A program made the translations under genes and the position numbers. Shown in pieces: positions 7,165 through 37,305 of a DNA stretch of 41,409 nucleotides. Origin of the DNA: a virus; the UHGV virus genome UHGV-0177896, one strand, 5' to 3'. Numbering within the stretch: the first letter of the stretch is position 1; each line of letters begins with the position of its first letter. Below the pieces are notes generated by a model. The model worked only from the letters and a program-made list of their open reading frames with translations. It searched no databases and was not told where the DNA came from.

Positions 7165-7695
7165 TCAAACCTTACTTATTAACATGCACGTTACAGAAAT
7201 AATAAAAAATACAAATGACATAACCATCCATCGAAACAACTCATTTACAAACGCTGATTTTTCTTTATGGATTTTCTCGATTCTATCAATAGCCCTACCA
7301 TACATTATCAAATGAAATCTGACTGTGTCATCTCTACTACCCCTCAGAAGAAATTCATGTTGTTCAGGTGTTCGATGCACAGGCATTTTGGGAATATTTC
7401 TAAGTTCCCAACATTTCCATAAATAATAAAAACAAAAAACCAAACATACAAAACATGAACATAGACACAATAGAGACAATCTTGCGGATAGACTAGTCTT
7501 TAACTGTTGTCCCAGCTCAAAGGACCCAAAAACGGCTAATAATGCAGAAATCTCAACACCAAGCACAGCAAGAAGAAAATTAGCTTTGTCCTCTAACCGC
7601 CTGTATGTTGTCTTAACTTCTTCATACCTGTCTCTCGAGTACGACAAAATCGTATCTACTTCAAGGCCAACAGCCTCATTCCTTTGATTGCACAT
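7165..7695 (-). CDS. Hypothetical integral membrane protein, low-GC cargo gene
   Basis: 176 aa with about three hydrophobic helices, one Cys-rich (LSLLCLCSCFVCLVFCFYYLW). Local DNA is markedly AT-rich compared with the flanking tail genes. No recognisable domain. Confidence 0.55.
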   Translation of the reverse strand: MCNQRNEAVGLEVDTILSYSRDRYEEVKTTYRRLEDKANFLLAVLGVEISALLAVFGSFELGQQLKTSLSARLSLLCLCSCFVCLVFCFYYLWKCWELRNIPKMPVHRTPEQHEFLLRGSRDDTVRFHLIMYGRAIDRIEKIHKEKSAFVNELFRWMVMSFVFFIISVTCMLISKV

Positions 7696-7701
7696 ATTGT
7701 A

Positions 7702-34831: not shown

Positions 34832-35254
34832 TCAATGCACTACGACAGAATCGCCGGGCGACCCACCACCGCTGAAATGTGCTTTCCGGTAAACGGCCTG
34901 GACTGCATCATCATGCGCATCAATTGCCGTACTCAACGCTTCCTGCGCCGCCAGTAATGCACGGCGTTCCAGGGTATCGAAGATGCAGAGTCGGTGACGC
35001 AGCTCGCGCGGAAGAATTGCCAGAACCGCAGGGATCAGTTTCTGAATTTTTTCCCTTTGCGCTTTCGTTTCACCTTTCAACCAACGGTGATAGATATTCT
35101 GCTGATTGTTCCAGTCCTTGCCTGGTACAAGGGGCAATTCGCCGCCCCCCTGGCGCAGATATTCTTCAGTAATTGCGTTAGCGACCCACGCCTGCCCTTT
35201 TTCGGCTGCCAGGGCTAACAACACTGATTCGATGTGCTCATGCCTGATTTTCAT
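34832..35254 (-). CDS. ydaT: YdaT-like early protein (CII-like position, 140 aa)
   Basis: 140-aa ORF translationally coupled (ATGA) to the Cro-like gene. Matches my recollection of Rac YdaT in length and N-terminus (MKIxHEHIESVL). Confidence 0.5.
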   Translation of the reverse strand: MKIRHEHIESVLLALAAEKGQAWVANAITEEYLRQGGGELPLVPGKDWNNQQNIYHRWLKGETKAQREKIQKLIPAVLAILPRELRHRLCIFDTLERRALLAAQEALSTAIDAHDDAVQAVYRKAHFSGGGSPGDSVVVH

Positions 35255-35493
35255 GAATCAACCGCTCCTATGCTGTTTTCGCTATGCTTACCGTCTGGGG
35301 GGAATACATCGTCAAGTCCACAATGAGCGCCAAGCCGATTAAGGGTAGAAACAATTTTTCTGCACTCCTCTAGTCCAGGGGTACGAAAATTTGCTTCGTA
35401 ATTTGCCAGTCGGCTTTGTATCCACCCTAACTGAACAGCAAGTTGTCTTTGAGACAGCCCAAGCTGTTTTCGATATGTTGAAATTTTGTTCAT
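35251..35493 (-). CDS. ydaS: Cro-like HTH regulator (YdaS-like, XRE family)
   Basis: 80 aa with an HTH (LGLSQRQLAVQLGWIQSRLANYE). First gene of the early operon, divergent from the repressor gene, with a GGAGG SD. Confidence 0.6.
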   Translation of the reverse strand: MNKISTYRKQLGLSQRQLAVQLGWIQSRLANYEANFRTPGLEECRKIVSTLNRLGAHCGLDDVFPPDGKHSENSIGAVDS

Positions 35494-35589
35494 TGAAAAC
35501 CTCCGATGACAATTTTAAACACACCTTGTGTTATATGGTCAAGCTGTTTTGTGTTTTATGTAAATCACGATTCGTGATACAAGGATGCA
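35494..35589. promoter_or_regulatory. Divergent immunity control region with candidate operators
   Basis: 96-bp gap between divergent HTH genes. Holds the dyad AACACA-CCT-TGTGTT (35518..35532), a second TTGTGTT (35549..35555) and the perfect 15-bp palindrome ATCACGATTCGTGAT (35564..35578). Confidence 0.55.
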
Positions 35590-36009
35590 ATGGAAAAAGA
35601 AAACGAAAAAATTGCCGCTAGTAGGCTCAATGACAAAATTGCAATGCGTCTTAAAGAGCGCAGGCAGAAGCTTGGTTTATCTCAAGGAAAACTTGCTGAA
35701 ATCTGCGGATGGACGCAATCGCGTATAGGTAACTATGAGGCGGGCAGCAGAAATGTTGGAGTGCATGACGCTGTCGTATTGGGAAAGGCACTTGGCATAT
35801 CTCCTCCTGAGCTCCTATTTGGAGAACAGGAATCTTCTGAATTGTGGTTAAATGAATCCCAACGAAAACTTCTTGAGTTGTTTAACCAGCTACCGGGCTC
35901 AGAACAACAACGAATGATTGAGCTATTTGAAGTCCGGCTAAAAGAAATCGATGAGTATGTAGAAAAATATTTGAGAGGCAGGCTTAAAGATAATCCCCCA
36001 CCGGAGTAA
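35590..36009 (+). CDS. XRE-family HTH repressor (RacR/CI-like)
   Basis: 139 aa with HTH LGLSQGKLAEICGWTQSRIGNYEAG. Divergent from the Cro-like operon and followed by a strong terminator. Confidence 0.7.
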   Translation: MEKENEKIAASRLNDKIAMRLKERRQKLGLSQGKLAEICGWTQSRIGNYEAGSRNVGVHDAVVLGKALGISPPELLFGEQESSELWLNESQRKLLELFNQLPGSEQQRMIELFEVRLKEIDEYVEKYLRGRLKDNPPPE

Positions 36010-36039
36010 TGATCTTGCTATCACAGTAATATGCCAATC

Positions 36040-36063
36040 AGCCCGCTATCAGCGGGCTTTTTT
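36040..36063 (+). terminator. Rho-independent terminator downstream of the repressor gene
   Basis: Stem AGCCCGCT/AGCGGGCT with a 3-nt loop, followed by TTTTTT. Confidence 0.7.
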
Positions 36064-36105
36064 GTACCATCATCATATGACACTCACCACAAAACACATT
36101 TCGTG

Positions 36106-36134
36106 TTGACATAAGAAAACGCATTGTGTTTAAT
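36106..36134 (+). promoter_or_regulatory. Sigma70-like promoter (TTGACA-N17-TTTAAT) with operator-like dyad
   Basis: Consensus -35 TTGACA at 36106..36111 and -10 TTTAAT at 36129..36134. The dyad ACACATTTCGTGT overlaps the -35, and a TTGTGTT motif like those in the immunity region sits in the spacer. Confidence 0.5.
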
Positions 36135-36308
36135 AAGCATATCCAAACAACGCCCCACCAGAGAACGGCTGGACAATACCTCGAGTTATCCAGCCACTGA
36201 ACAGGGCTAAGTAGCCAGCCTGAGGCATACGAACATGACGGCAGTTGTTGATTGATACAAAGCGCAGTAGATAAAACGTTCCGCCACCCGGCGTTAAGGG
36301 GAAAAAAG

Positions 36309-36687: not shown

Positions 36688-37083
36688 AGGAATACCTTAT
36701 TACTGGTTGTGTGAGAACTCCAGTATACCACCGAGCCTGAAGTGGTAAAAAGACAGGCGCACAACACGAAGGCGCATTTCCGGTATTCATAAAGAGTCGG
36801 TCTTGTCTGTTAAATTTAAATGGTGGGAGTGCGCCTCCGGTTGTAAATAACGACAATTGCTATGTGTAGTCTTTGGCGGCATCAGTTCTACTCCGTGGCT
36901 GCCCTGCCGCCCCTTTTTAAAGTGAATTTTGTGATGCGGTGAATGCGGCTAAGCGCACGCAGCACAGTTAAAAGCATCAGTGTTATGGGTGGATTATCCG
37001 GCGTTAATTGTTAACTGGTTAACGTCACCTGGAGGCACCAGGCACCGCATCGACAAAATTCATTTGTAAAAATGGAGATAATT

Positions 37084-37305
37084 ATGATTGCTCATCACTT
37101 CGGAACTGATGAAATACCACGTCAGTGTGTGACCCCTGGCGATTATGTTCTTCATGAAGGTCGGACATATATCGCCTCGGCAAACAATATTAAAAAGCGA
37201 AAACTTTATATTCGTAGCCTGACTACAAAAACATGCATTTCTGACTGCATGATTAGAGTCTTCCTCGGTCGTGATGGTTTACCTGTAAAGGCGGAGTCAT
37301 GGTAA
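37084..37305 (+). CDS. kilR: KilR-like cell-division inhibitor (73 aa)
   Basis: [46 protein letters not shown]... matches my recollection of Rac KilR. ATG at 37084 with GGAG 6 nt upstream. Confidence 0.6.

Follow-up and report, generated by a model that had tools for sequence, protein, structure and literature searches.

The palindromes on both sides of the repressor gene are best read as OR and OL, the operators that serve the immunity switch in a Rac-like lambdoid prophage of E. coli, a reading whose probability we estimate at about 0.85. The window, by which we mean the entire stretch of 41,409 bp that was analysed, is an intact-looking Rac-like lambdoid prophage, and its putative switch (Table 1) is arranged around two divergent ORFs with 96 bp between them, one for a repressor and one for a Cro-like protein, both of the HTH_3 family. 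According to the original prediction, a single HTH repressor may act at PR and at a promoter past its own terminator, on the kil-recET side. The proposal agrees with the shared family of putative operators, which lie in the same register at both promoters, and inspection of the sequence finds all motifs, palindromes and promoter hexamers on which it was built in their places. We consider the finding real but ordinary, because such operators are already annotated as putative in a Shiga-toxin-1 phage: the GenBank record of VT1-Sakai lists putative operators with the same core as in the window, three each at OR and OL.

Table 1. Predicted elements of the immunity switch and neighbouring features, in window coordinates.
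Feature	Position	Strand	Sequence or composition	Basis or score
YdaT-box, predicted CII-like activator site	35244..35261	-	TTGATT-CATGAA-AATCAG on the coding strand
Cro-like gene	35251..35493	-	80 aa	Pfam HTH_3, E 6.7e-10
Predicted PR	35514..35542	-	-35 TTGACC (35542-35537), 17-nt spacer, -10 TTTAAA (35519-35514)	consensus match
OR1-equivalent putative operator	35518..35532		AACACA-CCT-TGTGTT	exact pattern match; PWM score 15.9, rank 3/41,395
OR2-equivalent weak operator or half-site	35541..35555		AAGCTG-TTT-TGTGTT	position only, 23 bp from either neighbour; PWM score 1.0, rank 124
OR3-equivalent putative operator	35564..35578		ATCACG-ATT-CGTGAT, perfect palindrome ATCACGATTCGTGAT	exact pattern match; PWM score 18.9, rank 2
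Predicted PRM extended -10	35575..35583	+	TG-a-TACAAG	sequence-based prediction
Prophage repressor gene	35590..36009	+	139 aa; N-terminal HTH_3 and probable DicA-type C-terminal helical region
Intrinsic terminator of the repressor transcript	36040..36066	+	hairpin 36040-36058 (8-bp stem with 6 GC pairs, 3-nt loop), then T-run
OL distal putative operator	36093..36107		AACACA-TTT-CGTGTT, containing dyad ACACATTTCGTGT	exact pattern match; PWM score 19.9, highest in window
Predicted PL	36106..36134	+	-35 TTGACA (36106-36111), 17-nt spacer, -10 TTTAAT (36129-36134)	consensus match
OL proximal putative operator	36116..36130		AAAACG-CAT-TGTGTT	one core mismatch, 23 bp from distal site; PWM score 11.5, rank 5

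The recurring unit of the two control regions is a 15-bp palindrome, A-W-CAC-R-N3-Y-GTG-W-T, and not the heptamer TTGTGTT that had been put forward as their common motif. The heptamer does occur in both regions (its second copy in the divergent region at 35549-35555, and a copy downstream of the repressor gene at 36124-36130), and 3 of its 5 copies fall within about 177 bp of control DNA (Poisson P about 5e-6), but across the whole window it is not enriched (5 found versus 7.4 expected). The pattern AWCACR-N3-YGTGWT, defined as the union of the two OR dyads, has 3 exact matches in the window (35518, 35564 and 36093), all in the two control regions; 0.07 matches are expected, and 3 are reached in 0 of 100 shuffles. 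With a weight matrix trained solely on sites from other phages, the same three sites take the top three places among 41,395 window positions; the best score in shuffled windows is 13.1 on average and 18.1 at most. The first direct-repeat family from an unbiased repeat search consists of 35517-32, 36092-107 and 36115-30, and this search also recovers the 23-bp periodicity. None of the three operator sequences was found in papers by a literature search, and a search on mEp213 gave nothing on its operators. One further site with a single mismatch, at 853-867, falls at the edge of the prophage, between pinE and the host gene pphA. With 13.5 it scores about as high as the best site of an average shuffled window, and we therefore treat it as a chance match.

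Eight other loci with a homologous repressor HTH, including mEp213 and VT1-Sakai, have the same operator core at OR and also at OL. The core is missing in the Klebsiella phage Kp4865-4 (L007) and in a Phytobacter locus (L013), which carry other repeats; these two loci share only the C-terminal domain of the repressor and have a different HTH. This distribution is in line with the proposal of one repressor for both regions. In its exact form CAC-N5-GTG, the core reaches 13.1 per kb in the OR and OL regions of ten loci, compared with 0.146 per kb elsewhere in these loci. Within clades, 2 of 99 core positions are variable versus 61 of 521 positions in spacers and other intergenic DNA (Fisher P 0.0017), the central N3 being the most variable class (8 of 50 positions), where the comparisons, within clades as well as between phages, draw on related sequences and on site lists chosen by the analyst. 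Matches with two mismatches in the comparators, such as AACACCGGATGAGAT, are located in the conserved PL leader. We do not regard them as operators, because they also occur in Kp4865-4, whose HTH differs.

An explanation by chance, in which the palindromes have simply arisen in AT-rich intergenic DNA and play no regulatory role, is effectively refuted by the pattern count, the core density (an enrichment of about 90-fold in the control regions of the ten loci) and the matrix ranks, and it also has to contend with cores that are conserved next to variable spacers and with a promoter register that is alike in nine phages. What speaks for it is the heptamer, with its lack of enrichment across the window, and the fact that two of the five proposed sites, 35541 and 36116, are not significant from sequence alone, their support being their position.

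Under the preferred reading as OR and OL, the divergent region consists of three positions spaced by 23 bp and centred at -65, -42 and -19 relative to the repressor start codon. The OR1-equivalent differs among E. coli alleles at the spacer base 35524 only, and the OR3-equivalent is unchanged across four E. coli alleles; the centre of the latter lies 19 bp 5' of the repressor ATG, and a counterpart is found at -19 to -22 in all comparators (for pAEv1818 counted from an upstream in-frame ATG). The half-site in the middle is not significant by itself; middle sites are similarly weak in pPE4/E9 and Chris1, and strong in mEp213. At OL, E. coli alleles of the distal site differ in the spacer and Y10 only. 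The proximal site, whose score does not reach the mean top score of shuffled windows, reads AAAACA-AAT-TGTGTT in the APEC O1 allele. Nothing convincing as a third OL site is present upstream at 36070-36084 or downstream at 36139-36153.

The operators stand in a fixed relation to the two predicted early promoters. At PR (+1 predicted near 35507, SD GGAGG at 35504-35500) the 35541 site overlaps the -35 hexamer by 2 bp, and the 35518 site fills the spacer and overlaps the -10 hexamer by 2 bp; at PL (+1 predicted near 36141) the 36093 and 36116 sites do exactly the same, respectively. This geometry is identical at PR and PL both in the window and in the eight other loci (nine phages, anchored on TTGAC). 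Neither promoter is called by our promoter scan, whose rule requires an A at -10 position 2, where both hexamers have a T; PR and PL are for this reason consensus matches read by eye.

A third promoter, PRM, is predicted to start at or near the A of the repressor ATG at 35590, which would result in a leaderless repressor mRNA. The element GTG-r-TAnAAn that follows the gene-proximal operator recurs in Chris1, pPE4, pAEv1818, L012, mEp213 and VT1-Sakai, and the VT1-Sakai record annotates a cI maintenance promoter across the equivalent operator. The centre of the OR2-equivalent half-site lies at -42 from the predicted PRM start. Leaderless paaR2 and cI mRNAs are documented (PMC8630535). The -10 hexamer TACAAG is poor, and there is an SD-like AAGGA 4 nt 5' of the repressor ATG; a leadered repressor mRNA may therefore be the main or only form.

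In the proposed switch, repressor dimers would bind the 15-bp palindromes. PR would drive leftward transcription (in the window) of the Cro-like gene, ydaT and the replication genes, and PL would drive rightward transcription of a 72-aa ORF, DicF, kil, ydaE, racC and recET. As the operators overlap the -35 and -10 hexamers and fill the spacer of both promoters, repressor bound there would keep RNA polymerase away from PR and PL. PR would be covered by the 35518 site together with the weak 35541 site, the latter at the position from which lambda CI bound to OR2 activates PRM. The 35564 site overlaps the predicted PRM extended -10, which would allow for negative autoregulation and for shut-off by the Cro-like protein. 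This protein, with its paralogous HTH, would bind the same sites in another order of preference. OR and OL are 575 bp apart, and the weak sites hint at pairwise cooperativity or at looping between the two, which the C-terminal helices of the repressor may mediate. Promoter activity, start sites, cooperativity, activation of PRM and the order of occupancy are parts of the switch that we infer. A system in which one repressor and a Cro analogue act on PR, PRM and PL has been shown experimentally for CP-933P (PMC8630535), and a comparable repressor logic is described for DicA of Qin (PMC10448788).

The Cro-like gene heads an early-right operon that consists of cro-like, ydaT, ydaU-like and ydaV. 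Its product is 62% identical to Cro of VT1-Sakai (E 9e-32) and homologous to Cro of Chris1, pAEv1818 and mEp213. The repressor and the Cro-like protein have an HTH segment in common (LGLSQ..LA...GW.QSR..NYE, 45% identity, E 2e-10), and because they share the GW-QSR-NYE motif, both probably read the same sites. Binding of the two proteins to the operators we infer from this shared HTH and from precedent (PMC8630535).

A different assignment had been suggested for the ATCACG dyad ATCACGATTCGTGAT, namely that it is a distinct motif serving the second HTH protein. In its strict form, this explanation holds that the AACACA/TGTGTT sites are for the repressor only and the dyad for the Cro-like protein only. 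The dyad indeed departs from AACACA...TGTGTT at positions 2, 6, 10 and 14, no other site is as near to the repressor gene, the place at which a protein of the Cro type would be expected to work, and G6/C10 is found in 10 of 14 gene-proximal sites versus 3 of 14 OR1-like sites (seven phages; Fisher 0.021). Yet it fits the shared 15-bp consensus, obtains its score of 18.9 with a matrix built from OR and OL sites of other phages, has 80% identity across 15 nt with the distal site of OL, and keeps to the 23-bp phase of the series, with exactly 2 x 23 bp between it and the first dyad. Inside single operators of related phages, the half-site variants AACACA, ATCACA, AACACG and ATCACG combine freely, and the two supposed types are mixed within single operators of mEp213 and VT1-Sakai (for example ATCACA...CGTGTT). 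The HTH segment that the two proteins share also argues against separate specificities, as does pPE4, whose Cro-like protein is 100% identical to that of the window although its gene-proximal site is TTCACACATCGTGAT. We therefore consider two specificities very unlikely. The dyad is, as far as its sequence can tell, the OR3-equivalent of one shared operator family and not a separate motif; by analogy with lambda, the G6/C10 of OR3-like sites could make this site the one that Cro prefers, which would then amount to differential affinity inside that family and not to a second specificity.

It is still less probable that some other factor binds the sites, either a CRP-like host regulator with a TGTG/CACA half-site or the CII-like YdaT. 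A CRP site has the form TGTGA-N6-TCACA, with half-sites that include TGTGA and TCACA. The order of the half-sites in CAC-N5-GTG is the reverse of this, and the spacing differs as well. Footprints of K-12 YdaT show protection of PydaST, between racR and ydaS (PMC11879457), yet no TTGATT-N6-AATCAA-like sequence (up to 2 mismatches) exists in either control region of the window, the YdaT-box being located at 35244-35261. Moreover, the sites co-vary with the phage HTH and vanish in the two loci where this HTH is replaced. The YdaT-box itself has the ydaT start codon within its spacer and one mismatch to TTGATT-N6-AATCAA, and its sequence is nearly identical to the footprinted K-12 box ATGATTCATGAAAATCAA (PMC11879457) and to the CP-933P site (PMC9986795). 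We note that the box and the ydaT gene are context of the switch, not part of the operators.

The repressor is probably a DicA-type short protein and, by its predicted domains, has no S24 cleavage domain. Pfam returns HTH families only and no Peptidase_S24, and BLASTP aligns the protein with DicA at 29% identity over residues 14-135 (E 2e-15), including the C-terminal region. The DicA model is also its best NCBIfam match (57.2 bits, below the cut-off of 101). The HTH is 58% identical to that of mEp213 cI and 48.6% identical to that of VT1-Sakai cI. A PDB sequence search gives a match limited to the HTH, and a single-sequence AlphaFold2 model (pLDDT 49) is too poor for a fold search. Since the S24 autocleavage domain is lacking, induction presumably proceeds via an antirepressor or another route, as for DicA. 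No antirepressor is recognisable in PHROGs scans of nine small proteins, and no LexA box (CTGT-N8-ACAG) is found in the window.

Downstream of the PL operators are a DicF homologue (60.9 bits versus a gathering score of 48) and kil. With putative operators at the promoter of a DicF/kil operon and at a divergent cro-like promoter, the layout resembles the DicA type in architecture only. The PL leader is a conserved sequence. Assessed as a structured RNA, it yields a fold z-score of -0.6, a weak consensus fold and no net covariation support, and it matches no Rfam family.

The analysis provides an operator map of this immunity type with five putative sites, three predicted promoters and their predicted start sites. 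As proposed, the map would explain how kil, DicF and recET stay silent in these lysogens. The immunity module occurs in 162 of 5,426 complete E. coli genomes (about 3%), including strains of O157, O55, O145, O103 and O111, and many of its carriers are EHEC or APEC. The comparison further suggests a modular exchange, in which one HTH and operator set is combined either with an SOS-cleavable or with a DicA-type non-cleavable C-terminal domain, and this bears on which prophages can cross-regulate each other. A speculative extension, which we think is probably not correct, is that the combination of a VT1-Sakai/mEp213-type DNA-binding domain with a DicA-type C-terminus that RecA cannot cleave makes a resident copy a non-inducible trans-acting repressor of Stx1-converting and mEp213-like phages. 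If the repressor does bind the operators of these phages, such a copy would confer superinfection immunity and possibly damp the SOS induction of a co-resident Stx1 prophage. The recognition helix starts with TQSR in the repressor of the window, ASQSR in mEp213 and AAPSR in VT1-Sakai, and cross-binding to the operators of these two phages is therefore uncertain. The understanding of lambdoid switches in general is unchanged.

Among known systems, lambda is one of those closest to the window. It has been established experimentally that one lambda repressor acts at both early promoters, and the OR sites of the window, with their centres at -19, -42 and -65 relative to the repressor start codon, fit the geometry of lambda PRM. 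Lambda and the window have in common a divergent repressor/cro pair, a tripartite OR with centres about 23 bp apart, operators that overlap the -35 and -10 hexamers of PR and PL (the lambda GCGTGTTGACT junction resembles CGTGTTGACA of the window), a repressor promoter overlapped by an OR3-like site, an OL/PL pair past the repressor terminator, and a CII-like activator with its own site. The putative operators of the window are 15 bp long (CAC-N5-GTG), whereas those of lambda have 17 bp; the window repressor has 139 aa without Peptidase_S24, no more than two sites can be recognised at OL, PL is not followed by an N gene, and the part of CII falls to YdaT, a protein with no sequence relationship to it.

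The phages VT1-Sakai and mEp213, to whose type the immunity region of H-19B presumably also belongs, have the operator core at OR and OL and the promoter register of the window. Unlike the window, they possess three strong sites per operator and an N gene after PL. Their repressors carry a LexA-type Peptidase_S24 in place of the DicA-type C-terminus and are therefore expected to be SOS-inducible. With Qin, the similarity lies in the repressor, whose alignment to DicA runs along the full length and takes in the C-terminal LLELFN.LP.SEQ, both proteins being short and non-cleavable, and in the 3' part of the PL leader. For DicA too, operators are found between the divergent genes and again downstream at dicBp, the promoter of the operon for DicF and a division inhibitor (PMC10448788). 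The window repressor stays below the NCBIfam cut-off for DicA (57 against 101), the HTH specificity and the operators differ, the Qin repeats being of the TGTTAG...CTAACA type, and the Cro-like protein of the window is unrelated to DicC, to which no homology was found.

In CP-933P, the CI-like PaaR2 and the Cro-like YdaS both bind intergenic operators and repress PL, the -35 and -10 hexamers of PL are identical to those of PR, and the repressor mRNA is leaderless (PMC8630535). In the same prophage, a TTGATT-N6-AATCAA box located where ydaS meets ydaT is the site from which YdaT switches on a PRE-like promoter (PMC8630535, PMC9986795), and the window has its YdaT-box in the same position. The CP-933P operators differ in being 18-bp repeats with the consensus GTTTAGTAA, and its repressor operon includes a paaA2-parE2 toxin-antitoxin pair that is absent in the window. 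K-12 Rac shares with the window the backbone of ydaT, ydaV, kil, ydaE, racC, recE and recT as well as the PL layout and leader. The repressor and the Cro-like protein of the window show no homology to RacR and YdaS of Rac, and the RacR repeats are TTAGGCAT..CCTA-like. The label originally given to the repressor side is off, as the repressor is no homologue of RacR: BLASTP against RacR gives E 2.0, and no alignment with YdaS was obtained. On its Rac-like backbone, the window carries a hetero-immune replacement of the immunity module.

The window is an intact-looking prophage adjoining pphA, with tail, head, terminase and lysis genes; E. coli AVS0790 (NZ_CP124436.1) carries a stretch 100% identical to these 41.4 kb. 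After the structural and lysis genes come, on the minus strand, ydaV, a ydaU-like gene, ydaT and the gene for the 80-aa HTH (Cro-like) protein. Divergently, on the plus strand, the gene for the 139-aa HTH protein (the repressor) precedes a 72-aa ORF, kil, ydaE, a racC-like gene, recE and recT. Gene content and order therefore indicate a Rac-like backbone. Despite this backbone, and judged by protein comparison, the immunity genes are not Rac-like: no similarity connects the 139-aa protein to RacR or the 80-aa protein to YdaS. The immunity module is found in 162 of 5,426 complete E. coli genomes.

We consider it highly probable (roughly 0.85) that the sites flanking the repressor gene serve the prophage as its OR and OL operators, on the divergent side and on the side feeding kil-recET, respectively. 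The original prediction had proposed TTGTGTT as an operator motif shared by two promoters, and all motif elements it named are found where it placed them. Three of the five TTGTGTT copies lie inside ~177 bp of control DNA (P ~5e-6); over the whole window, however, the heptamer is not enriched (5 copies vs 7.4 expected), and the actual motif is a palindrome of 15 bp. The pattern AWCACR-N3-YGTGWT, in which the two OR dyads are merged, has exactly 3 matches in the 41 kb vs 0.07 expected. Site centres recur every 23 bp (OR: 35525, 35548, 35571; OL: 36100, 36123). An unbiased repeat search ranked the OR/OL family first and also detected the 23-bp repeat, and a weight matrix built from other phages' sites only places the three strong sites at ranks 1, 2 and 3 of 41,395 positions. 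The three operator sequences had no match in the literature searched. A further one-mismatch match to the pattern, AACACGATTCCTGTT at 853-867, lies at the edge of the prophage in the interval from host pphA to pinE; its matrix score of 13.5 is about what the best site of a shuffled window scores on average, and it is probably due to chance.

Predicted control elements of the immunity region and the adjoining operons
Feature	Coordinates	Strand	Sequence or match	Remark
PR, predicted	-35 35542-35537; -10 35519-35514	-	TTGACC, 17 nt, TTTAAA	GGAGG and Cro-like ATG next
PL, predicted	-35 36106-36111; -10 36129-36134	+	TTGACA, 17 nt, TTTAAT	just past repressor terminator
Repressor terminator	36040-36058			
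Putative operator	35518-35532		exact AWCACR-N3-YGTGWT match	OR
Weak putative operator	35541-35555		good half is TTGTGTT at 35549	OR, middle
Putative operator, ATCACG dyad	35564-35578		ATCACGATTCGTGAT; exact AWCACR-N3-YGTGWT match	OR, gene-proximal
Putative operator	36093-36107		exact AWCACR-N3-YGTGWT match	OL
Putative operator	36116-36130		one mismatch to pattern	OL
YdaT-box	35244-35261	- (coding)	TTGATT-CATGAA-AATCAG	ydaT start codon in spacer
DicF sRNA homologue	36861-36912	+	Rfam RF00039, 60.9 bits vs gathering score 48	between PL and kil

PR and PL are predicted promoters by their match to the consensus. At both, one operator overlaps the -35 hexamer by 2 bp and a second fills the spacer, with a 2-bp overlap with the -10. 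A promoter scan called neither, because its rule demands A at position 2 of the -10. The centre of ATCACGATTCGTGAT lies at -19 relative to the repressor ATG, and its right half would provide the TG of a predicted extended -10 (TG-a-TACAAG, 35575-35583). Transcription from this element would begin roughly where the ATG does, at its A, yielding a leaderless mRNA; the mRNAs of lambda cI and paaR2 are leaderless (PMC8630535). TACAAG is a weak -10, and the ATG also has an SD-like AAGGA upstream.

The repressor aligns over its full length with Qin DicA (29% identity, E 2e-15), scoring under the NCBIfam DicA cut-off, and lacks a Peptidase_S24 domain. A PDB sequence search matched only the HTH, and a single-sequence AlphaFold model reached pLDDT 49. 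The LexA box CTGT-N8-ACAG is absent from the whole window (1-41409), and no antirepressor is recognisable among the small ORFs scanned. Relatives at 57-66% identity (tblastn and genome scan) are found in Citrobacter phage Chris1, two Citrobacter prophages, 'Actinobacillus' phage pPE4, whose immunity type is that of the E. coli E9 prophage, Aeromonas phage pAEv1818 and an Enterobacter prophage; the LexA-type cI proteins of mEp213 (58%) and VT1-Sakai (48.6%) are homologous in the HTH alone. Every one of these relatives, mEp213 and VT1-Sakai included, has core CAC-N5-GTG sites at both OR and OL, with a density of 13.1 per kb in control regions vs 0.146 per kb elsewhere, and the operator-promoter register, anchored on TTGAC, is identical at PL and PR in 9 of 9 phages. 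The same HTH and operator set occurs with a DicA-type helical C-terminus (window, Chris1, pPE4, pAEv1818) and with Peptidase_S24 (mEp213, VT1-Sakai). Kp4865-4 and Phytobacter keep the DicA-type C-terminal domain with a different HTH, and have other repeats instead of these sites; the motif therefore follows the DNA-binding domain. Among close alleles, substitutions affect 2/99 core positions, 8/50 of the central N3 and 53/471 of the surrounding DNA (core vs the rest, Fisher P 0.0017). The GenBank record of VT1-Sakai lists three putative operators each at OR and OL with the same core, and a cI maintenance promoter over the gene-proximal operator.

Domain shuffling is seen at 35590-36009 of the window and in two comparator loci (L008, 2498-3139; L019, 2001-2639). 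In Raoultella sp. BIGb0138 a 59%-identical repressor homologue has no visible divergent Cro-like gene, is preceded by a single site (AACACAATTTGTGCT, 1429-1443 of that locus) and is followed by unrelated genes; this may be a lone remnant under autoregulation. The immunity and kil region of 'Actinobacillus phage vB_Apl-pPE4' (PP818812.1) is nearly identical to that of the E. coli E9 prophage (NZ_CP104500.1), its Cro-like protein and that of the window are 100% identical, and the Actinobacillus host given for it looks doubtful.

The 80-aa protein is a VT1-Sakai-type Cro (62% identity, E 9e-32), and its HTH shares 45% identity with that of the repressor. Both proteins, like the comparator Cro/repressor pairs, have LGLSQ..LA...GW.QSR..NYE in common, which DicA and DicC do not share. 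The simplest reading of this shared HTH is therefore that both would read one operator family, as do the two proteins of lambda, 434 and CP-933P. The separate ATCACGA motif originally suggested for the second HTH protein is not supported: the ATCACG dyad scores 18.9 with the matrix, is 80% identical to an OL site in the repeat search, and is a member of the shared family. G6/C10 is commoner in gene-proximal (10/14) than in OR1-like sites (3/14), which is suggestive of tuned relative affinity, the sequences from these seven phages not being independent. A 26-nt inverted repeat (35440-35465/35669-35694, 81% complementary) in the two genes reflects the paralogy of their HTH coding segments (..LGLSQ..L..), which lie on opposite strands.

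The PL leader (36141-36305) is nearly invariant in E. coli alleles that differ in their operators. It is common to the hetero-immune prophages pPE4/E9 and K-12 Rac, and partly to Qin, Chris1, pAEv1818, Kp4865-4 and an Enterobacter prophage, one shared stretch being AAGTAGC..GGCATACGAA..GCGCAGCAGGT..CGTTCCGCC. The leader has no Rfam match and no convincing RNA fold (fold z-score -0.6, weak consensus structure); it is possibly an antitermination, Rho-loading or processing signal. Further downstream, a terminator-like hairpin (36895-36910) forms the end of the DicF homologue, followed by a sub-threshold STnc100 match (36902-37091).

The original idea of one repressor acting at two promoters gains support from the shared sites, their register and the comparators, and stands as a prediction. 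To the observed sites, their statistics, register and conservation we add a proposal for binding, promoter activity and cooperativity. Repressor dimers on the PR and PL operators would exclude RNA polymerase, and their occupancy would silence the Cro-ydaT-replication and DicF-kil-recET operons. Cooperative binding would fill the weak middle OR site, at -42 relative to the start of the repressor, and repressor bound there could stimulate the repressor promoter. The gene-proximal site would mediate negative autoregulation and be the one that Cro targets. YdaT, acting at its box at the cro/ydaT junction, would raise the synthesis of repressor. The sequence of this box is almost identical to those of the footprinted K-12 Rac box ATGATTCATGAAAATCAA (PMC11879457) and the CP-933P site TTGATT-N6-AATCAA (PMC9986795), which implies a PRE-like, YdaT-activated route to repressor synthesis.

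The K-12 Rac PL (L001, ~7640-7700, minus strand; TTGACA-17-TATAGT) has the same operator register with different, TTAGGCAT..CCTA-type repeats, which are presumably sites for RacR; operators have thus been swapped on a conserved promoter scaffold. The regulatory logic proposed for the window is also that of lambda, Qin DicA/DicC/dicBp (PMC10448788) and CP-933P PaaR2/YdaS/YdaT; in CP-933P both proteins have been demonstrated to regulate PR, PRM and PL (PMC8630535). With the DicF homologue between PL and kil, the PL operon resembles the Qin dicBF operon, and the operator specificity matches the VT1-Sakai annotation. Particular to the window is the combination of a VT1-Sakai-type HTH and operators with a DicA-type, non-cleavable C-terminus.
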